Assembly: GCF_000698785.1 (NCBI RefSeq)
Contig: NZ_CP007536.1
Location: forward strand, 1,260,001-1,292,000
Source of the DNA: Nitrososphaera viennensis EN76
Lineage (GTDB): Archaea > Thermoproteota > Nitrososphaeria > Nitrososphaerales > Nitrososphaeraceae
Length of the DNA: 32,000 nt
Reading direction: 5' to 3'
Shown here: positions 1,351 to 16,573 of the stretch, piece after piece
How the letters are laid out: the number at the start of each line of letters is the position of its first letter
How positions within the stretch are numbered: the stretch's first letter is position 1
Program-made: the position numbers and the translations under genes
The notes under the pieces: model-generated
The model's database searches: none
Told to the model about the DNA's origin: nothing
The model's input: the letters and a program-made list of their open reading frames with translations, nothing else

Positions 1351-1854
1351 TCAACCCCGCAGGAGCACATAGTCGCGCCCAAACACGAAACCGATCCACA
1401 TCAGCGCGCCCTTTTGGAACACGACTGCCATCTGCGATGCGATCTCGCCTGGCGCAACGTCGCTTTTGCCCTCCTTGCGCGCAAGGGCCATCTCGTCCGG
1501 CTGCACAAACAGCGGCATCTTGACCTCCGGCAGGCCTTTTTCCTTGCGCATGTGATTCAGCATATTCAGTATCAGATCAAGGTCATGCTTGACATCAGGG
1601 AGAAGCAGGTTTTCTCTGTATACGGCAACAATGTCGGTGGTGCCGCCGTTCTTGACCCTTGCGACCCGGAATAGCGCCGGGAGTTTTTTCCATTCGGGAT
1701 AAAATTCAGTCAGTGCCGAAACCAGCTCGTCGATTTCACCCCGGAAGGCCGACAGGTCGTCCTCGCTCCCGCGCTTTTGCCGCGCGATTATCTTTTCGAT
1801 CTCGGATTTTACCTGCAAAACGTCCTTGAGAGGCTTGACGTTAAAGAGCACCAC
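1351..1854 (-). CDS. hypothetical protein (167 aa)
   Basis: Track ORF with a GTG start at 1854. The composition looks protein-like and no competing ORF has better support. No family recognised. Confidence 0.6.
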   Translation of the reverse strand: MVLFNVKPLKDVLQVKSEIEKIIARQKRGSEDDLSAFRGEIDELVSALTEFYPEWKKLPALFRVARVKNGGTTDIVAVYRENLLLPDVKHDLDLILNMLNHMRKEKGLPEVKMPLFVQPDEMALARKEGKSDVAPGEIASQMAVVFQKGALMWIGFVFGRDYVLLRG

Positions 1855-2280: not shown

Positions 2281-2802
2281 CTACAAGCTCAGGACCCGCT
2301 TGGCCTCGCTGACCCGGTCGAGCAGATCCTTCAGGAAAATGTCGGCAAACTGGTCAAACGTAAACACGGAATATTTCTGGCGGTATTCCTGCTTGCGCTT
2401 CTGGTACTCTTCCTCCAGCCACCGGAAATCCGATTCTTTCAGCTTGACGATGAAATTCTGCGACTTGGCTTTTGACTCGAACATGTTGAGCATAAAGTAG
2501 CTGGCAAACTGGGTAAAGCTGTTTGCGCGGTACCTGCGGTTGTACTCTTCCTTGTATTTTTCAAAGTTCTCGTCAAGCCATGCCTTGACGTCTGACCTGA
2601 TGGTAAGCGACGTATAGCGGCCGCCGAAATCCTCCTTTATGGCGCACGTGTCCACCGTGTAGTAGCCGCGCTTTATCTCGTTCATAAGGATGATGAGAGC
2701 GCTAGGGAGGAACATACCTGGATAGTACTCGTCCGTTATCTGTTGCAGCTTCGCCAAGATGGCTGGCTTTAGGCCTATCGTGGCATATCCTTGGCTAGGC
2801 AT
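2281..2802 (-). CDS. hypothetical protein with a possible ribbon-helix-helix N-terminus and an internal duplicated helical module
   Basis: 173 aa. The N-terminus (YATIGLKPAILAKLQQITDEY) looks like a strand-helix RHH start. Two approximately 34-aa repeats, W75-F108 and W128-L161, share WL-E---K-K-EY---Y----F-QFA--F. Confidence 0.65.
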   Translation of the reverse strand: MPSQGYATIGLKPAILAKLQQITDEYYPGMFLPSALIILMNEIKRGYYTVDTCAIKEDFGGRYTSLTIRSDVKAWLDENFEKYKEEYNRRYRANSFTQFASYFMLNMFESKAKSQNFIVKLKESDFRWLEEEYQKRKQEYRQKYSVFTFDQFADIFLKDLLDRVSEAKRVLSL

Positions 2803-5791: not shown

Positions 5792-6940
5792 ATGGGAATG
5801 GAATTTTACGGTGATTCGTACAAGGGAAATGACGAGCCGATTTTTGTAGGCATACCAACCTTCCTAAAGCTGCCCTGGCTAAGGAGCAAGGCAGAGCTGG
5901 AAAAAGTCAGGCCGGACGTGGCCATCATAGGAGAGCCGTTCGACTTTGGCACCACCATCCGCCCGGGAGCAAGGTACGGCCCAAGGGCAATCCGCGCGGC
6001 CTCGACCGTCCCGTCCCCGCCGTACGAGCACTTTAACATAGAGACAGGCGTCGACCCGTTTGGCGTGTTCAGGACAGTCGACTATGGCGACGTCAACATA
6101 TCGCCCGGCGACGTGGTAGAGTCGCACAGGCGCATGACAGAGAAGGTGAAGGAGGTGCTTGACATCGACGGCATCCCGGTGATGCTTGGCGGAGATCATT
6201 CAATTACGTTTGCCAACGTGCGCGCCTTTGCAAAAAAATACAAGAACATCGGCATGATCCACATCGACACCCATGCCGACTGCGCGCCGCAGGGCCTGAC
6301 AGGCTTCAAGTACGACCACGGCGCCCACATCCGCAGGATAATGGAGCTTGGGTGCCTCAAGGGCAAGAACTACACCCTCATCGGCCCGAGGGGCTACTGG
6401 CCGGGGCCGGACCTCTACAAGTGGATGGCCGACCAGGACTTTCAGTGGTTCACTATGCTCGACGTTGAAGAACTTGGAATCGACAAGATAGCAAAAGAGG
6501 CAGCAGACAGGGCAAACGACAACGTCGACGCAGTCTACATCAGCTGGGACATTGACACGTTTGACCCCGCGTATGCGCCGGGAACAGGCGAGCCGGAGCC
6601 AAACGGCCTGACTTCCAGAGAAGGCATGCGCCTCATGCGCCTGCTTTCGACGTCATTTGACCCGGACAGGTTTGCGTTTGACCTTGTCGAAGTCGCGCCA
6701 AACTATGACGTAAGCGACGGAAGCTCGTACAATGGTGGCATCACGTCCGGCCTTGCCAACAGGCTCATTGTCGAGTTGCTTGCCGGCCTGTCGCTGACAA
6801 AGAAGGGCAAGACGGAAGGGACCCCGGTGAGGCCAAACCTCTACCGCGGAAAAGGCCACACGTACGACTTTGGCAACGGACCCAAGGCCAAGGTGCCAAA
6901 GAGGCCGCCCCTGAACTACGGCCCAAAGGTAAAGAGGTAG
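5792..6940 (+). CDS. arginase-family ureohydrolase (agmatinase-like) with a roughly 50-aa basic C-terminal extension
   Basis: 382 aa. All arginase-family metal-binding motifs are present: GGDHSIT, IHIDTHADC (DxHxD) and SWDIDTFDPAYAPGTG (SxDxDxxDP). The substrate (agmatine or another guanidino compound) cannot be told from the sequence. Confidence 0.9.
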   Translation: MGMEFYGDSYKGNDEPIFVGIPTFLKLPWLRSKAELEKVRPDVAIIGEPFDFGTTIRPGARYGPRAIRAASTVPSPPYEHFNIETGVDPFGVFRTVDYGDVNISPGDVVESHRRMTEKVKEVLDIDGIPVMLGGDHSITFANVRAFAKKYKNIGMIHIDTHADCAPQGLTGFKYDHGAHIRRIMELGCLKGKNYTLIGPRGYWPGPDLYKWMADQDFQWFTMLDVEELGIDKIAKEAADRANDNVDAVYISWDIDTFDPAYAPGTGEPEPNGLTSREGMRLMRLLSTSFDPDRFAFDLVEVAPNYDVSDGSSYNGGITSGLANRLIVELLAGLSLTKKGKTEGTPVRPNLYRGKGHTYDFGNGPKAKVPKRPPLNYGPKVKR

Positions 6941-6943
6941 CAG

Positions 6944-7339
6944 ATGATCTACATCAAGGCAGTTGCAAAGGGCGAGCCTGACGCGGCCCCCCTTGCCAAA
7001 TTTTTTCAGTACATCGATTCTACGGACGAAGTCATCCTGCAGCATTCGATAGAGATGGTAAAGGACAAGATTGACAAAAACCTGAAGCTGAACGTAAACG
7101 AGGCATTTTTGCTGTACGCGTATTTTGTTGCAAACCAGATGCGCGCCAAGAAGAAGGCGGCCGAGATCGAAAAGGACGCCAAGTCGCTCCTTTCGCCAGG
7201 CCAAGTCATGATAGGCGTCCCGGAAACTTTGAGGATTGTCACGTTTGACGCCATAGTTGACGGGAAAAGGGAATGGGTGACTTTGCAAGAGCCCATGTCC
7301 GTGTCAAGCTACGTAATGGCAGCCAATCATCAAGGCTAA
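6944..7339 (+). CDS. urease gamma subunit (UreA)-like paralog with N- and C-terminal extensions
   Basis: 131 aa, with the ATG 3 nt after the ureohydrolase stop. A hand alignment to the ureA product in this window gives about 23 identities over about 71 positions. Examples are LKLN-EA, LLSPGQVMIGVPE against [13 protein letters not shown], and DG..VT..P. Confidence 0.75.
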   Translation: MIYIKAVAKGEPDAAPLAKFFQYIDSTDEVILQHSIEMVKDKIDKNLKLNVNEAFLLYAYFVANQMRAKKKAAEIEKDAKSLLSPGQVMIGVPETLRIVTFDAIVDGKREWVTLQEPMSVSSYVMAANHQG

Positions 7340-7348
7340 TAATAATTC

Positions 7349-8242
7349 TCAGTGCGCGTGCCTGTGATCCTTTTCATGCGCGTGTGCGTGTACGTGCACC
7401 ACCACCCCATGTGAGTGCATGTGGTACTTTTTGCGCAGAAACGAGTACAGCGCAGATATGCCAAATGCGGCCGCTCCAAACAGCACAATCGTAGCGCCTG
7501 ACGCTGAGTCGAGGAAAAAGCTGGAATACATGCCGGCAAAGGCAGTAGCCGCGCCTATCGCGGTAGAAAGTGCAAGCATCTTTTGAAAGTTGTTTGTCAG
7601 CATCCTTGCAGAGATGGCCGGCGCAACTATGGCGGCCGCAAGCAAGGTCACGCCTATTGCAGACATTGACGCGATCACGACCGTGGCAAGGATGAACGAA
7701 AACGCCAGCTCCACTGTTTCCACCCGGATTCCATAGACCCGGGCCGTGTCCTTATCAAAGAGCGTAAAGAGCAGGCGCTTGTGGAAGAACGTGATGAACA
7801 GCGCCGTTGCGGCAGTGGCTATTGCTATCATGGCCACATCCTGGCCGGTTATCCCAAGTATGTTGCCAAAGAGTATCGATTCAAAGTCGCGTGTAAAGCT
7901 CCGGGTGGTGCTTATCAAGAGCACGCCGACTGCAAAGCCGGCTGTGGTGACGACGCCTATCGCCGCGTCGGCCTTGATCTTGCTCCTGCGGCTTATCTCG
8001 TTTATCGCAAACGCCGAGAGGAACCCCCACAGGGCGGCCCCAATGTACATGTTAAAGCTCAGGATATAGCTCACGACGGCGCCGCCAAACACCGCGTGCG
8101 ACATGCCATGCCCGATGTAGCTCATGCCGCGCAGGATTATGTAGACCCCAAGGAGCCCGCAGGAGCCCCCGACCATTATGGCGACCAGTATCCCCCGCGT
8201 GAAAAACTCGTATTGGAACGGCTGCAGCAGAAGGTCCATCAT
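7349..8242 (-). CDS. metal ABC transporter permease (ABC-3, ZnuB/TroC/MntB-like) with a His-rich C-terminal tail
   Basis: The track ORF extends to 8362, but that part overlaps the ATPase gene. ATG at 8242 (MMDLLLQPF...) lies 2 nt after the ATPase stop. The protein is polytopic. Its last 24 residues, HMHSHGVVVHVHAHAHEKDHRHAH, contain 10 His. Confidence 0.85.
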   Translation of the reverse strand: MMDLLLQPFQYEFFTRGILVAIMVGGSCGLLGVYIILRGMSYIGHGMSHAVFGGAVVSYILSFNMYIGAALWGFLSAFAINEISRRSKIKADAAIGVVTTAGFAVGVLLISTTRSFTRDFESILFGNILGITGQDVAMIAIATAATALFITFFHKRLLFTLFDKDTARVYGIRVETVELAFSFILATVVIASMSAIGVTLLAAAIVAPAISARMLTNNFQKMLALSTAIGAATAFAGMYSSFFLDSASGATIVLFGAAAFGISALYSFLRKKYHMHSHGVVVHVHAHAHEKDHRHAH

Positions 8243-8244
8243 CG

Positions 8245-8976
8245 TCAGCGTCCCCCCTCCGTGTCCACCACCAGCCCGTAGGTTGCAAGCAGGTTTTCGT
8301 TGGTCAGTATGTCGGCGGGCCGCCCCTGCGATATTATGCGCCTGTTCATGCACACGACCCACGGGAGCCGGCGCGCCACGCCCGAAATGTCGTGCGTGGT
8401 GAGGATCACCGTGACGCCCTTTTGGTTCAGCTCGCCAAGCACGCCAAGTATCGCCTCCCGGGTGGCGTGGTCGACGCCGGAGGTCGGCTCGTCAAGCACG
8501 AGTACGTCAGGGGAGCGGATCATCGCCCTTGCAAGAAAGACGCGCTGCTGCTCGCCCCCGGAAAGCTCGCTTATCTGCCGCGACGCGTAATCGCCTATGC
8601 CGAGGCTTTCAAGTACGCGCATTATCGCCTCGCCGGCGGCGCTTCCTATCCACGGGCCCCTGCCCGAGCTATTCCACACGCCCATCGACACGACCTCCTT
8701 GACGGTGACCGGGAAATTCCAGTCAACGCTTTCCACCTGCGGCACGTACCCTATTTTGCGCCCCCTTTCTAGGTCCACAGAGCCGTGCCACGGCTTGACA
8801 AGGCCGGCTATCACCTTCAAAAGCGTAGTCTTGCCCGAGCCGCTTGGCCCCAGGATGCCGACAAAGCTCCCTGCGGCTATGCTCAGGTTGACGCCCTCTA
8901 TCACCGGCCGGTTGTAAGAGTAGCCGTAGGTTACTTCCCCGAGCGTGACTGCGCCGGCCGCCTTCATTCCTGTCAC
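8245..8976 (-). CDS. metal ABC transporter ATP-binding protein (ZnuC/TroB-like)
   Basis: Walker A GPSGSGKTT, ABC signature LSGGEQQR and Walker B VLVLDEPTSGVD. The start overlaps the upstream SBP stop (ATGA). Confidence 0.92.
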   Translation of the reverse strand: MTGMKAAGAVTLGEVTYGYSYNRPVIEGVNLSIAAGSFVGILGPSGSGKTTLLKVIAGLVKPWHGSVDLERGRKIGYVPQVESVDWNFPVTVKEVVSMGVWNSSGRGPWIGSAAGEAIMRVLESLGIGDYASRQISELSGGEQQRVFLARAMIRSPDVLVLDEPTSGVDHATREAILGVLGELNQKGVTVILTTHDISGVARRLPWVVCMNRRIISQGRPADILTNENLLATYGLVVDTEGGR

Positions 8977-9995
8977 AAATCCCCCGTATACGTATCAGCA
9001 GGATCTATGTCTGAAAGCGCGTCGACGTTTCCGCCAAGTGGGACTATCATGTTGCGCATGTTTTCAAGCATCATGCCAACGTAGGTGTGTCCGGGCTCGC
9101 CGGCGTTGCCCGGCAGCGCGTCGTCCCGCAGCGTTTCTACGACCTGGACGTTGGCTTCCTTTGCTATCTGGTCGACCACCTTGCTCTGGAACACCTCGGA
9201 AGCAAATATTGCCGGCACTTTTTCCTGGCGTATCTGGTCGATTATGCTTGCCACCTCCTGCGGAGTCGGCTCGCCAAAGTCTGACGGCTGCACTGCCCCT
9301 ATCACCTTCATGCCGTAGCGGGGCGCAAAATAGGCCCACGAGTCGTGGTACGTGAGAAGCTTGCGTTGCTCGGCAGGGATCGTCTGTACAGACGCCATGA
9401 TGCCCTGGTCAAGCCTCTGGAGCAGCGCAAGGTACCTGTCCGCGTTGGCCCTGTAATAGTCTGCATTGCCAGGGTCCATCTCCACCAGCTTGTCGCGCAC
9501 AAGCTGCGCGTACTTTATGGCGTGGGCGACGTTGAGCCACAGGTGCGGGTTAGGATCGCCGCCCTCTTCAGGGAAGCTAAAGTCAAAGACCCACTGGTCG
9601 CGGGTTATGGTGCTGTCCGCCAGCCTCAAAATCTGGAGGTCTGGCTTGCCGGCAGCTTGTGCCACCCTTTCGATGTCGGTCTCCAGATGGAGGCCGTTTA
9701 TGATGACGAGGTCGGCTTTTCCGACGGCGATCGAGTCTGAGGGCGCAAGCTCAAAAGTATGGGAATTCACGCCTTCCGGCACAAGGCCGGTGAGCTGTAT
9801 CCTGTCGCCTCCAACATTTCTGACGATGTTTGTTATCGGCGCCACAGACGTGACAACTGCCAGCTTTTCGCTCTCCACGCTGGCAGGGGTAGGGACAGGG
9901 TTTGCGCCCGCAGACATGGCGGCCACCCCAATTATCGCCGCCACGACCACAATGGCCGCAATTATCCCTATTGCTTTAGCGTTTGCCAACTGCAA
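8973..9995 (-). CDS. metal-binding ABC substrate-binding protein (cluster A-I, TroA/ZnuA/PsaA family), membrane-anchored
   Basis: 340 aa with a TTG start and an N-terminal hydrophobic anchor. Family-typical ligand contexts are NSHTFE, NPHLWL, YHDSWAYF and LRDDALP. Metal specificity cannot be determined from the sequence. Confidence 0.88.
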   Translation of the reverse strand: MQLANAKAIGIIAAIVVVAAIIGVAAMSAGANPVPTPASVESEKLAVVTSVAPITNIVRNVGGDRIQLTGLVPEGVNSHTFELAPSDSIAVGKADLVIINGLHLETDIERVAQAAGKPDLQILRLADSTITRDQWVFDFSFPEEGGDPNPHLWLNVAHAIKYAQLVRDKLVEMDPGNADYYRANADRYLALLQRLDQGIMASVQTIPAEQRKLLTYHDSWAYFAPRYGMKVIGAVQPSDFGEPTPQEVASIIDQIRQEKVPAIFASEVFQSKVVDQIAKEANVQVVETLRDDALPGNAGEPGHTYVGMMLENMRNMIVPLGGNVDALSDIDPADTYTGDL

Positions 9996-10959: not shown

Positions 10960-11370
10960 CTACTTATCTTGGAAGGAGCGGCGAAATCCATTCATCGTGG
11001 AACTTCTTGTAGTCTTTGTATAGGCAGGCGAATGAAACGAAGGATCTTTCAGAGAACTAAAATCATATACTTCGTAGGATTGAATAATATCTCCAAACAG
11101 GTTTCTGCAGATGTCACTCTCTTCATCGGCTATTTCCTCTGATTCAAACGACTGAATAGATATCCAATCATATCTACCTTTTGTGCGCCCAGAAAACAAC
11201 ACAAAAGGAGCATCAACAAGGTATTTTTTCAAACTTTCGATCCTCATCGGAAGATGTTGCGATGTTCTAAATATTATAAGAACAACCCGTATTACGTGTT
11301 TTCGAATTTCCTTTCTCCTTTTTGCGGGCTCCGCCACCATATCGACAAAAATGTCTTTGCTGTCTCCCAT
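10960..11370 (-). CDS. hypothetical protein (136 aa)
   Basis: Longest ORF in the AT-rich islet, with an ATG start. Operator-like site C is centred 37.5 nt upstream. No family recognised. Confidence 0.45.
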   Translation of the reverse strand: MGDSKDIFVDMVAEPAKRRKEIRKHVIRVVLIIFRTSQHLPMRIESLKKYLVDAPFVLFSGRTKGRYDWISIQSFESEEIADEESDICRNLFGDIIQSYEVYDFSSLKDPSFHSPAYTKTTRSSTMNGFRRSFQDK

Positions 11371-14183: not shown

Positions 14184-14486
14184 ATGATGCTTGCTCCACG
14201 GGAGATAGACAAGCTGTACATTTTCATGGCCGCAGAGGTGGCGCGAAAAAGGCGTGCAAGGGGACTAAAGCTGAACTACCCAGAGGCGGTGGCGCTCATT
14301 TGCGACCACATTGTAGAAGGGGCACGCGACGGCAGGTCGGTGCCAGAGCTTATGAGCTCCGGCAGGCAGGTGCTTTCAAGGAGCGACGTCCTCCCCGGAG
14401 TGCCAGAGCTTGTCAAACAGGTGCAGGTAGAAGCGACGTTTGAGGATGGCACGAAACTTGTGACAGTGCACAACCCCATAGTGTGA
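14184..14486 (+). CDS. ureA: urease subunit gamma
   Basis: 100 aa with a canonical UreA sequence ([12 protein letters not shown]...[12 protein letters not shown]). Confidence 0.97.
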
Positions 14487-14495
14487 TCCCTCGAC

Positions 14496-14861
14496 ATGAT
14501 ACCGGGCGAGTATTTCATTGCTTCAGACAAGCCGGTGACGGCAAATTCCGGCAGGAAAACGACGGGAATCAAGGTGACCAACACGGGCAACAGGCCGGTG
14601 CAGGTAGGCTCGCATACGCACTTTTTTGAGGTCAATAAGGCGCTTTTGTTCCCGCGGGAAAAGGCGTACGGCTTTCACCTGAACATCCCGTCGGGAACTT
14701 CGCTGCGCTTTGAGCCCGGCGACACGCGGCAAGTCGAGCTGGTAGAGTACGGCGGCAGGAAAACAGTGTACGGATTTTCCGGCCTTGTTAACGGCAAGCT
14801 GTCAATGAAAAAGAGGCAAGCGCTTGCAAAGGCAAAGGCAAGGGGGTTTGCGGGCGCTTGA
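14496..14861 (+). CDS. ureB: urease subunit beta
   Basis: 121 aa with a canonical UreB N-terminus (MIPGEY...[19 protein letters not shown]). Confidence 0.97.
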
Positions 14862-16573
14862 CGCTTGAAATCCCGCGCAGGCAGTACGTCGACCTCTACG
14901 GCCCGACCAAGGGCGATAGGGTGAGGCTAGCAGACACTGACCTGATAATAGAGGTAGAAAAGGATCTGCTTTCGCATGGCGACGAGCTGGTGTTTGGAGG
15001 CGGCAAGAGCGTCCGCGACGGAGCAGGCCAGACAGGCGGCGTGACAAGCAGCAGGCAGGCACTTGACCTTGTCATAACAAACGCGATAGTGATGGACCCG
15101 GTGCTAGGGATAGTCAAGGCCGACATCGGGATAAAGGACGGCAGGATAGCTGGAATTGGCAAGGCTGGAAACCCGGATGTCATGGACAAGGTCGACATGA
15201 TAGTGTCATCAAGCACAGAGGTCATAGCCGGCGAGCATACGATATGCACGCCCGGGACCATTGACACGCACATCCACTTCATCTCGCCCCAGCAGGCGGT
15301 AGAGGCGATATGCACCGGCACGACCACAATGATAGGAGGTGGGACGGGCCCGACTGATGGCACGAACGCGACGACGTGCACGCCGGGGCCCTGGAACATC
15401 CACAGGATGCTTGAAGCCCTTGACGAGCTCCCGCTGAACTTTGGGCTGCTCGGCAAGGGAAACGACTCGCGCGAGCCGGCCCTCATCGAGCAGATTGCGG
15501 CAGGCGCCTGCGGGCTGAAGCTCCACGAAGACTGGGGCTCCACGCCGGCTGCGATAGACGCCGCGCTCAGAGTAGCAGACAAGACCGACACGCAAGTGGC
15601 GATACATACGGACACGCTCAACGAGTGCGGCTTTGTCGATGACACGATTGAAGCGATAGCAGGGCGTACCATCCACACGTACCACACGGAAGGTGCCGGT
15701 GGGGGACACGCGCCGGACATTTTAAAGATCGCCGGCGAGAACAACATCCTGCCGTCTTCGACAAATCCTACGAAGCCGTTTACTGTAAACACGCTGGAGG
15801 AGCACCTTGACATGATGATGGTGTGCCACCACCTGAGCCCCTCCATCCCGGAGGACGTGGCGTTTGCCGAATCGCGAATACGCGCAGAAACGATTGCTGC
15901 GGAGGACGTGCTGCACGACATTGGCGCGCTTTCCATGTACTCGTCAGACAGCCAGGCGATGGGAAGGGTGGGCGAAGTGACCACGAGGGCGTGGCAGACT
16001 GCAGACAAGATGAAAAAGATGGCCGGCAGGCTAAAGGGCGAAAAGGGCGACAACGACAACCTGCGCGCAAAGAGATACCTGGCAAAGCTCACGATAAACC
16101 CGGCCATCACGCACGGCATCTCTGCCTACGTCGGCTCGCTTGAAAAAGGCAAGATAGCGGACATTGTCATCTGGACGCCGCAGTTCTTTGGAGTCAAGCC
16201 AAAGATGGTGGTAAAGGGAGGGTTCATAGCGTACTCGCTGATGGGCGACCCAAACGCGTCCATACCGACGCCCGAGCCGGTGTACTACAGGCCGATGTTC
16301 GGGTCGATGGGCGCTGCAAAATACTCTACGTCGTTCACGTTCACGTCAAAGCTTGCAGTCAGAAACGGCGTCGGGAAAAAGCTGGGACTAAGGAAAAAGC
16401 TGCTGCCCGTGAAAAACTGCCGCAGGATTGGCAAGCGGAACATGCTGTACAACGACCTTGCGCCAAAGATAGACGTCGACCCGGAGACGTACGAGGTCAA
16501 GGTGGACGGCAAGGTGGCGACAAGCGAGCCGGCAAAGAGCCTCTCGATGGCTAGGCTCTACAACCTGTTCTAG
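14858..16573 (+). CDS. ureC: urease subunit alpha
   Basis: 571 aa. The TTG start overlaps the ureB stop (TTGA). Active-site motifs are [17 protein letters not shown] (carbamylated Lys), [27 protein letters not shown] and SSDSQAMGR. Confidence 0.97.

Follow-up and report, generated by a model that had tools for sequence, protein, structure and literature searches.

A ureohydrolase and a protein of the urease gamma fold form a conserved gene module in ammonia-oxidizing archaea

Ammonia-oxidizing archaea (AOA) drive nitrification in most soils, and their known substrates are few, namely ammonia, urea and, in some, cyanate. A stretch of 32 000 nucleotides from Nitrososphaera viennensis EN76 (RefSeq assembly GCF_000698785.1, contig NZ_CP007536.1, positions 1,260,001 to 1,292,000 of the forward strand; hereafter the window) raises the question of what a relative of a urease structural subunit is doing directly behind an enzyme of the arginase superfamily. 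The first gene of the pair, NVIE_014910, encodes a ureohydrolase and the second, NVIE_014920, a UreA-like protein; published tables, through the gene order of which the locus tags were assigned, list them as a 'putative arginase family protein' and a 'conserved protein of unknown function'. Both translations agree exactly with database records of N. viennensis, the smaller one being 100% identical. An earlier inspection of the letters alone (the sequence-only reading) had located both open reading frames (ORFs) correctly, and had proposed that the pair is either a two-component ureohydrolase or a device coupling urea production to urease. The present analysis establishes the pair as a conserved module of the Nitrososphaeria, a dedicated and ancient partnership between a ureohydrolase and a neofunctionalized urease gamma paralogue. 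The explanation tentatively favoured here, with a probability of roughly 0.4, is that of a catabolic, urease-feeding ureohydrolase with a dedicated accessory protein derived from UreA. It is possible that the pairing lets soil AOA draw on more nitrogen compounds, and it offers an example of a structural subunit of one metalloenzyme re-used by another.

The UreA-like protein scores 43.3 bits with the Pfam family Urease_gamma, for which the gathering threshold is 23.9 (E = 4.9e-11), residues 27–117 corresponding to profile positions 8–98, and the match is thus significant. In a pairwise BLASTP comparison with the UreA encoded in the window, by contrast, zero alignments were returned at E <= 100, so that the homology rests on profiles and fold. 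The paralogy proposed in the sequence-only reading from a hand alignment is therefore supported by both of these, but is not detectable pairwise, the identity in a MAFFT alignment being 26%. An AlphaFold2 (AF2) model of the protein, based on an alignment of 45 family members, has a predicted local distance difference test score (pLDDT) of 90.2 and comprises an N-terminal beta-hairpin (residues 2–23), a helical core and a C-terminal hairpin. When this model was compared with the PDB using Foldseek, the top 18 matches were all urease gamma chains or domains, with E values of about 5e-6 and template-modelling (TM) scores of 0.78–0.80 normalized to the target. UreA and the UreA-like protein thus have a common fold (TM about 0.8) and share the motifs KLN..E and GVPE and a C-terminal proline, and they differ in that the UreA-like protein, with 131 residues, carries the hairpin and a C-terminal tail which UreA, with about 100, does not possess. 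The additions had been put at some 30 N-terminal and 14 C-terminal residues; the latter figure holds, whereas the former is really about 19–26. Conservation within the UreA-like family is highest in the added hairpin and in the GVPE loop.

Several observations indicate that this protein is not a subunit of urease: its scores fall below both NCBIfam equivalog cutoffs for UreA (TIGR00193, 40.9 against 82.3; NF009712, 39.2 against 123), a genuine ureA coexists with it in the window and in at least 25 related loci, and it evolves faster. UreA-like genes never adjoin ureB and always follow a ureohydrolase gene, while genuine ureA sits with ureB and ureC. The 'genuine ureA' some 7 kb away, to which the UreA-like gene had originally been compared, is indeed genuine, but belongs to an operon (ureA2B2C2) that is weakly expressed in N. 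viennensis according to published data and is not the primary one. In databases, members of the 131-residue family are labelled 'urease subunit gamma' or are unnamed, and the first of these annotations should not be applied to them.

The association with the ureohydrolase proved to be strict. A genome scan with the enzyme alignment as query and one genome per species returned 333 relatives, the best 80 of which were all from AOA and showed 92–98% identity to the N. viennensis enzyme; a UreA-like ORF lay beside the enzyme gene at every scanned locus with room downstream. In an exhaustive profile search for the UreA-like family, 88 representative clusters with E <= 1e-10 matched from the hairpin onward, whereas genuine UreAs matched the profile only at positions 26–122. 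Over all of the DNA retrieved, the hairpin-type gene had the ureohydrolase directly upstream in 86 of 86 loci, spanning Nitrososphaera, other Nitrososphaeraceae, the Nitrosotalea/Nitrosopumilaceae group and divergent high-GC archaeal lineages; in the divergent members, the UreA-like gene follows a ureohydrolase of 371 residues with an overlap of 1–4 nt. The 79 core-only matches, which lack the hairpin, were without exception ordinary ureA genes, located next to ureB/ureC or at the edge of a contig. A metagenome scan with the divergent alignment retrieved mostly ordinary ureA through the shared GVPEM motif and serves as a negative control. The adjacency noticed in a single genome is hence a property of the family. 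No fusion of the two proteins of the Rosetta-stone type occurs among the relatives examined, the long ureohydrolases being explained by His-rich tails or mis-called starts and the long UreA-like proteins by low-complexity tails. Searches of the literature by accession and for 'UreA-like' found no mention of the partner. While a metallohydrolase with a dedicated accessory protein is an already known type of arrangement, what is new here is that the accessory protein derives from a urease subunit, together with the clade to which the enzyme belongs.

Two loci depart from this pattern. In L094 (L numbers designate the loci compared), a truncated UreA-like ORF of 96 residues without hairpin and helix 1 (6028..6318) lies directly after ureC; the ureohydrolase is absent, a NicO-like fragment follows, and this ORF, the only hairpin-less member of the family encountered apart from the enzyme, is probably the remnant of a lost pair. 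In L047 (9055..9579), from a metagenome-assembled genome, the UreA-like gene is split by a frameshift attributable to an assembly error or to a pseudogene, the sole such case among the 78 genome-scan loci with room downstream of the ureohydrolase.

The arrangement of the junction points to a translational dependence of the second gene on the first. In the window, the stop codon of the enzyme gene is separated by a single CAG from the ATG of the UreA-like gene, and in nearly all of 61 anchored loci the stop-to-start gap lies between -4 and +22 nt. The codon found at the position of the N. viennensis ATG is ATG in 24 of these loci, CTG in 17, TTG in 16 and GTG in one, a non-ATG codon (TTG, CTG or GTG) thus occupying the start position in 34 of the 61. 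Such weak start codons adjoining the upstream stop fit a translation that depends on ribosomes completing the enzyme gene. The CTG group comprises 17 species of a low-GC Nitrososphaeraceae subclade (L015, L017, L018, L020, L021, L023, L025, L027, L029, L032–L035, L037, L043, L053 and L054), most of which have no ATG, GTG or TTG option. Since in most of them an in-frame stop lies 1–3 codons upstream, translation of the conserved hairpin can plausibly begin only at the CTG, which implies non-canonical CTG initiation or termination–reinitiation. A loss of the hairpin in this subclade, suggested by 'short' ORFs with gaps of 115–160 nt, was rejected because the hairpin is encoded in frame, with the conserved CTG at the start position and the stop just upstream. 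As a separate matter, both ORFs of the window are in the same frame with only TAG-CAG between them, so that stop readthrough would yield a fusion protein; the shared frame is probably a coincidence, given that most relatives overlap by 4 nt and their frames differ.

The two genes differ markedly in evolutionary rate. Between N. viennensis and Nitrosotalea-type loci (window 5792..6940 against L001 6889..8004 and L003 6868..7986), the ureohydrolases are 95% identical, with saturated synonymous sites, and within Nitrosotalea the ratio of nonsynonymous to synonymous substitution rates (dN/dS) of the enzyme gene is 0.011–0.028. The corresponding identities between N. viennensis and Nitrosotalea-type loci are 85% for UreC, 72–90% for genuine UreA, 70% for a ParB-like neighbour, 67% for NikR, 57% for the SSF transporter and 37–45% for the UreA-like partner. 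At equal distances, the partner retains 40–65% identity where UreA retains 72–90%. With a dN/dS of 0.08–0.15, it evolves about ten times faster than the enzyme and is nevertheless under purifying selection, which indicates that the gene is functional. A recent horizontal transfer behind the 95% identity between orders was considered and rejected, because the nucleotide identity is 75%, the GC contents at third codon positions (GC3) are 0.74 and 0.32, and the same codon is used for only about 34% of the identical residues; the saturation of synonymous sites identifies purifying selection as the cause. It may be remarked that the ureohydrolase is more conserved than UreC between the two archaeal orders.

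The ureohydrolase keeps all of the metal ligands of the arginase family (H136, D159, H161, D163, D253 and D255), as had been recognized from its sequence, and these six are invariant in its clade, which is further marked by the motifs GTGEPEP and FKYDHGA and by an SDxSSYNGGIT insertion. It is routinely annotated as an agmatinase, yet it falls below both NCBIfam agmatinase cutoffs (TIGR01230, 156.6 against 174.3; NF002564, 197.1 against 302) and is encoded in a urea-utilization island with its own transporter. Its nearest solved relatives by sequence in the PDB are the guanidinobutyrase GbuA (181 bits), two Ni-dependent guanidinases (164 bits each), proclavaminate amidinohydrolase (PAH, 162 bits) and the guanidinopropionase GpuA (158 bits), the solved agmatinases reaching 128 bits or less; by structure comparison, guanidinase, GbuA, GpuA, PAH and metformin hydrolase are not separable as nearest neighbour. 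Judged by its sequence, the enzyme is neither a canonical SpeB agmatinase nor a GdmH-type guanidinase, and published surveys place no AOA enzyme in the guanidinase clade. In one AOA clade an 'agmatinase' clustered with an SSS transporter has been treated as SpeB (PMC11131427). Since two other 'putative agmatinases' of N. viennensis have both been detected in its proteome (published data), and 2–3 speB copies are reported for AOA in the literature, a catabolic role of NVIE_014910 is plausible.

Relatives of the enzyme at 54–60% identity that lack any UreA-like gene occur in several contexts. One is found directly upstream of ureABCFGD (L005) and another directly downstream of ureABCEFGD, beside an SsuA-family ABC transporter (L087), while haloarchaeal partner-less orthologues and that of L005 adjoin an SSF transporter. 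A third (L089) lies beside a nitrile hydratase, a BiuH-like cysteine hydrolase, a urea ABC transporter and urease. The thread common to these contexts appears to be urea made from a small imported nitrogen-rich compound, and guanidine or a close relative is the leading guess for the substrate. Of the two residues that determine the specificity of GdmH, Thr97 and Trp305 in Synechocystis numbering (PMC11410670), the former has its equivalent in T55 (GTTIRPG) of the ureohydrolase. The cluster of L089 (4598..8077), on a haloarchaeal-type contig, comprises nitrile hydratase alpha and beta subunits and activator, the BiuH-like hydrolase, the ureohydrolase, urea ABC transporters and urease, and fits a degradation route of the cyanoguanidine or guanylurea type; the activator there is an ORF of 114 residues with an NHase_beta_N Pfam match.

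The C-terminal tail of the enzyme is basic (net charge +9) and predicted to be disordered, with a pLDDT of 46–59 in the monomer model. All clade members align up to P(V/I)RP, and only the partner-bearing enzymes continue with YRGxGxTYxFG...PKR; every partner-bearing locus has the tail motif, exactly or with one residue changed, and none of the partner-less L004, L005, L006, L087/88 and L089 has it. Of the basic extension of about 50 residues described in the sequence-only reading, which is indeed present, only the part up to PVRP is therefore common to the clade, and the rest is partner-specific. A segment that is conserved yet predicted to be disordered resembles a docking motif, and the tail is probably a docking site for the UreA-like protein. 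In one ureohydrolase subclade (P0063, P0064 and P0066; L173 6562..7878), the tail motif is followed by a His-rich stretch (e.g. HSHSHGNHGHSH) resembling that of nickel-handling proteins.

Published expression data show that the small gene is transcribed and changes in the same direction as the enzyme gene. In the supplement of a 2026 preprint, NVIE_014910 (baseMean 2866) responds to 3,4-dimethylpyrazole phosphate (DMPP) and to allylthiourea (ATU) with a log2 fold change (log2FC) of +2.07, or about fourfold, and NVIE_014920 (baseMean 28) with +1.54 and +1.58; the primary urease operon, ureABC1, and a urea transporter are also induced under DMPP in this data set. In the supplement of PMC7785015, the values, apparently log2 of reads per kilobase per million, are 5.38 and 5.57 for NVIE_014910 and 3.11 and 3.93 for NVIE_014920, both genes being up in copper limitation (p about 0.014). 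Per unit length, the mRNA of the small gene is ~3–5 times lower than that of the enzyme gene in the copper-limitation data and ~35 times lower in the preprint, which are ratios of mRNA and not of protein. Two thymine tracts within the UreA-like ORF, T6 in its 5' part and T5 further on, could act as archaeal terminators behind this drop across the pair.

The surroundings of the pair link it to transport, to urease and to nickel. Among 42 loci of at least 12 kb, an SSF transporter was found in all 42, a thermosome gene in 33, UreC in 25, a ParB-like protein in 20 and a tetratricopeptide-repeat (TPR) protein in 19. In 20 of the 68 loci with room, including those of the closest Nitrososphaera relatives of the window (e.g. 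L008–L011), the UreA-like gene is followed immediately by a gene for a NicO-like membrane protein of ~250 residues, which has an H-X4-D-H motif and a His-rich loop and gives full-length, consistent, although sub-threshold, matches to NicO (Pfam, E about 1e-4), HoxN/NixA, NicT and RcnA. In N. viennensis this slot is filled by an ABC metal importer on the opposite strand, followed by NikR. In L173 and L174, the enzyme, UreA-like, NicO-like and ureABCEFGD genes follow one another on one strand. In L090–L092, which represent three divergent lineages, the pair is accompanied by the SSF transporter and the thermosome, with zero urease genes within 8 kb; L091 and L092 have the NicO-like gene immediately downstream of the pair, and in L090 it is encoded on the other strand at a distance of ~3 kb. 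The NicO-like gene, NikR and the His-rich tails favour a nickel link of the module, and we infer from them that the enzyme itself may depend on nickel. The thermosome and TPR neighbours hint at a dedicated folding or assembly system.

According to the accessory-protein explanation, the ureohydrolase would release urea from a small imported guanidino compound, and this urea would feed urease and hence ammonia oxidation. A urease gamma paralogue would have left urease, gained the N-terminal hairpin and become the dedicated accessory of the ureohydrolase, made through translational coupling in amounts below those of the enzyme. It would probably dock on the enzyme through the clade-specific tail motif and, acting outside the active site, would aid its maturation, by way of oligomer assembly and/or metal loading, most likely with nickel. 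An accessory role is likelier than that of a permanent 1:1 subunit in view of the low and variable mRNA, the weak start codons and the fast evolution of the partner. The catabolic, urease-linked character of the enzyme is suggested by the occurrence of its clade in or beside the urease operons of unrelated organisms and by its induction together with ureABC1, and nickel also by the presence of Ni-dependent guanidinases and metformin hydrolase among its nearest solved relatives.

Known systems offer partial parallels. GdmH from Synechocystis (7esr/7oi1) and the guanidinase from Nitrospira inopinata (9fek) have the arginase fold and metal ligands identical to those of NVIE_014910, with 31–32% identity; a dedicated accessory and metal-related genes accompany both GdmH and NVIE_014910, but the nickel chaperones of GdmH, GhaA and GhaB, have the HypA/HypB fold, while the proposed accessory protein has that of UreA. 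No HypA/HypB-like ORF was found among the annotated neighbours of the pair. Terminal extensions matter for quaternary structure in these guanidinases. GbuA (3nio), GpuA (3nip) and PAH (1gq6), with TM scores of 0.85–0.89 normalized to the target and 31–35% identity, release urea from guanidino compounds, but are homo-oligomers without a small partner and lack the GTGEPEP motif, the SSYNGG insertion and the tail motif. The arginase-family metformin hydrolase MfmAB (8snf, 8ryi; 25–28% identity) is Ni-dependent and requires a second, non-identical polypeptide, which is an arginase-family paralogue there and a protein of the Urease_gamma fold here. The activator of nitrile hydratase, a 'self-subunit swapping chaperone', is a small homologue of a structural subunit that is encoded next to its enzyme and acts in low amounts in metal insertion; it derives from the beta subunit of its own enzyme, whereas the UreA-like protein derives from a subunit of another, urease. 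This activator is a conceptual analogue only, and a swapping mechanism is not implied by the present data.

A number of observations weigh against the accessory-protein explanation or parts of it. The alignment of the UreA-like family contains no conserved His or Cys that would hint at metal binding. The nickel genes could instead serve a urease encoded elsewhere, and the ABC importer of the window scores best against Zn and Mn systems. Moreover, Mn is the metal of GbuA, GpuA and PAH, to which the enzyme is related just as closely. As the partner-bearing enzymes form a single clade, the correlation of the tail motif with the partner is confounded by phylogeny and counts as a single evolutionary event. 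With respect to the substrate, the position of Trp305 of GdmH is occupied by the clade-invariant Glu267 (PGTGEPEP), although guanidine was guessed in part because a free amino group could form a hydrogen bond with an additional carboxylate at the Thr/Trp position. Neither the window nor L004, L005, L006, L087 and L089 yielded a guanidine riboswitch, and surveys report no guanidine-degradation genes in AOA (PMC11410670, PMC12625717). Finally, the mRNA ratios differ about tenfold in magnitude between data sets, and both proteins are absent from the proteome table of the 2026 preprint.

The alternative that survives best, albeit an unlikely one, is that of a stoichiometric two-component enzyme, in which trimers of the UreA-like protein would permanently cap or clamp the threefold axis of a ureohydrolase trimer or hexamer. 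The gamma subunit of urease bridges adjacent alpha subunits, so that a similar use of the fold can be envisaged, and heteromeric enzymes of the arginase family exist, MfmAB being one. Strict adjacency and translational coupling would be expected of such an enzyme, its extreme conservation would fit many protein–protein contacts, and the low pLDDT not only of the tail but also of two invariant loops (residues 50–80 and 300–320) in the monomer model is as expected for parts that become ordered only in a complex. However, the mRNA of the small gene is 3–35 times lower than that of the enzyme, its start codons are weak or non-canonical in over half of the species, and a partner that is 35–45% identical where the enzyme is 81–95% identical would be unusual for a permanent subunit; in addition, the relatives at 54–60% identity manage without one. 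The two-component enzyme suggested in the sequence-only reading is accordingly disfavoured in a 1:1 form.

A more specific claim would be that the ureohydrolase represents a second nickel guanidinase of independent evolutionary origin, or acts on a closely related small guanidino compound, and that it receives its substrate through the adjacent SSF transporter and needs the UreA-fold protein for its assembly or nickel loading. In this full form we hold it to be rather doubtful, but if it were true most soil AOA could gain ammonia, and hence energy, from guanidine-type compounds, contrary to genome surveys, and a structural fold of urease would have found new use as a maturation factor of an unrelated hydrolase.

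It is improbable that the UreA-like protein bridges the ureohydrolase to urease, replacing the gamma subunit or binding UreC, whether for urea channelling or for borrowing UreDFG in the nickel loading of the ureohydrolase. The retention of the core motifs KLN..E and GVPE, the proximity of ureABC, only a few kb from the pair in 25 of the 42 long loci, the co-directionality of the pair with ureABCEFGD in L173/L174, the probable ancestral order of ureohydrolase followed by ureA-ureB-ureC (as in L005) and the lack of HypA/HypB-type genes beside the pair would all agree with such a coupler. Nevertheless, the ureohydrolase accompanies the family at 86 of 86 loci and urease at only 25 of 42, the pair persists in L090–L092, where urease genes are lacking within 8 kb, and the partner-less relatives are already in urease operons. 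The added hairpin and the fast divergence also argue against a fit in the urease gamma site. Coupling to urease, the other option put forward originally, is thus not required by the distribution of the pair.

That NVIE_014910 is a housekeeping agmatinase (SpeB) of polyamine and hypusine synthesis, followed by a largely or wholly functionless gene that an old rearrangement of a urease operon left behind, appears quite improbable. The gene order of L005 shows how a ureA copy could stay behind, the expression of the small gene is low, one frameshifted (L047) and one truncated (L094) copy exist, and L173 has a gene for deoxyhypusine synthase at a distance of about 4 kb; the public annotation as agmatinase and the designation SpeB (PMC11131427) point in the same direction. 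A plain housekeeping agmatinase is made unlikely by the scores of the enzyme, which lie below both agmatinase cutoffs and place it closer to GbuA, GdmH and PAH, by the two other candidates in the N. viennensis proteome and by its context; moreover, the inhibitor treatments that induce the urease genes also raise the transcript of the enzyme gene. Purifying selection on the UreA-like gene and its retention, with a conserved hairpin, in 86 loci that span deep divergences rule out a functionless relic. A regulatory role, in which the UreA-like protein would be a scarce inhibitor or sensor gating the ureohydrolase, e.g. in response to urea or urease status, would accord with sub-stoichiometric expression at the mRNA level, with fast evolution around few invariant motifs and with a synthesis tied to that of the enzyme by translational coupling, but has just as little in its favour, as a sub-stoichiometric inhibitor could not silence a more abundant enzyme, no evident conserved pocket-like residue set is present and no ligand-binding or regulatory role is known for the urease gamma fold.

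The features of the pair and of its neighbours are listed in Table 1. The urea and nickel neighbourhood described in the sequence-only reading is borne out, with the SSF transporter, the metal ABC importer, NikR and ureABC all present in the window. The SSF transporter should not be confused with NVIE_014780 and NVIE_014790, which are annotated as urea transporters.

Table 1. Features of the gene pair, its neighbours in the window and recurring neighbours in related loci (positions in the window unless a locus is named).
Feature	Coordinates	Strand	Basis or remark
SSF-family transporter, NVIE_014880	2872..4395	-	Pfam SSF
ParB_N + HTH_ParB protein, NVIE_014900	4928..5677	+	Pfam; synteny conserved
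Arginase-superfamily ureohydrolase, NVIE_014910, 382 aa	5792..6940	+	ATG start; Pfam Arginase, E 1.9e-80
C-terminal tail of ureohydrolase, residues 345-382	6824..6937	+	basic, predicted disordered
Tail motif YRGKGHTYDFG	6842..6874	+	only in enzymes with UreA-like partner
Gene junction TAG-CAG-ATG	6938..6946	+	stop TAG 6938-6940; 3-nt gap, both ORFs in same frame
UreA-like protein, NVIE_014920, 131 aa, UniProt A0A060HGJ1	6944..7339	+	ATG start; Pfam Urease_gamma
N-terminal beta-hairpin, residues 2-23	6947..7012	+	AF2 model
T6 tract in 5' part of UreA-like ORF	7001..7006	+	possible archaeal termination signal
Urease-gamma core, residues 27-117	7022..7294	+	Pfam; variable C-terminal tail after
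T5 tract in UreA-like ORF	7106..7110	+	sequence
ABC-3/ATPase/ZnuA-type metal importer, mntCBA, NVIE_014930-50	7349..9995	-	Pfam + NCBIfam
NikR nickel-responsive regulator, NVIE_014970	11559..12005	-	Pfam NikR_C, E 1.1e-25
Thermosome subunit ths1, NVIE_014990	12263..13978	-	Pfam + NCBIfam; recurring neighbour
ureA2-ureB2-ureC2, NVIE_015000-20	14184..16573	+	Pfam; second N. viennensis urease operon
NicO-like genes	L010 9544..10332; L072 9500..10276; L173 8239..8976; L091 8378..9154; L092 8476..9210		
Recurring thermosome neighbours	L090 1760..3427; L091 2302..3984; L092 9242..10933		
Recurring TPR protein	L001 5919..6434; L090 8386..9615; L091 5516..6748; L173 4710..5222		

Under both nitrification inhibitors, the strongest induction in the neighbourhood is that of the gene for the ParB-like NVIE_014900, with a log2FC of +3.8 (DMPP) and +4.1 (ATU), against +1.3 and +1.4 for NikR (2026 preprint), and this protein may be the regulator of the module. 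The ureA2B2C2 operon has no accessory genes beside it, while ureABC1 is found with ureDGFE outside the window (NVIE_014680-760). Matches to the Rfam family '5_ureB_sRNA' above the gathering score occur in the window (15013..15299, minus strand), in L005 (3582..3865, minus) and in L087 (2726..3021, minus), antisense to the conserved 5' part of ureC, and most likely reflect conservation of the coding sequence rather than an archaeal small RNA. Three ORFs of the window, all on the minus strand, have no Pfam match (1351..1854, 167 residues; 2281..2802, 173 residues; 10960..11370), and the first two keep their synteny with the SSF transporter across AOA.

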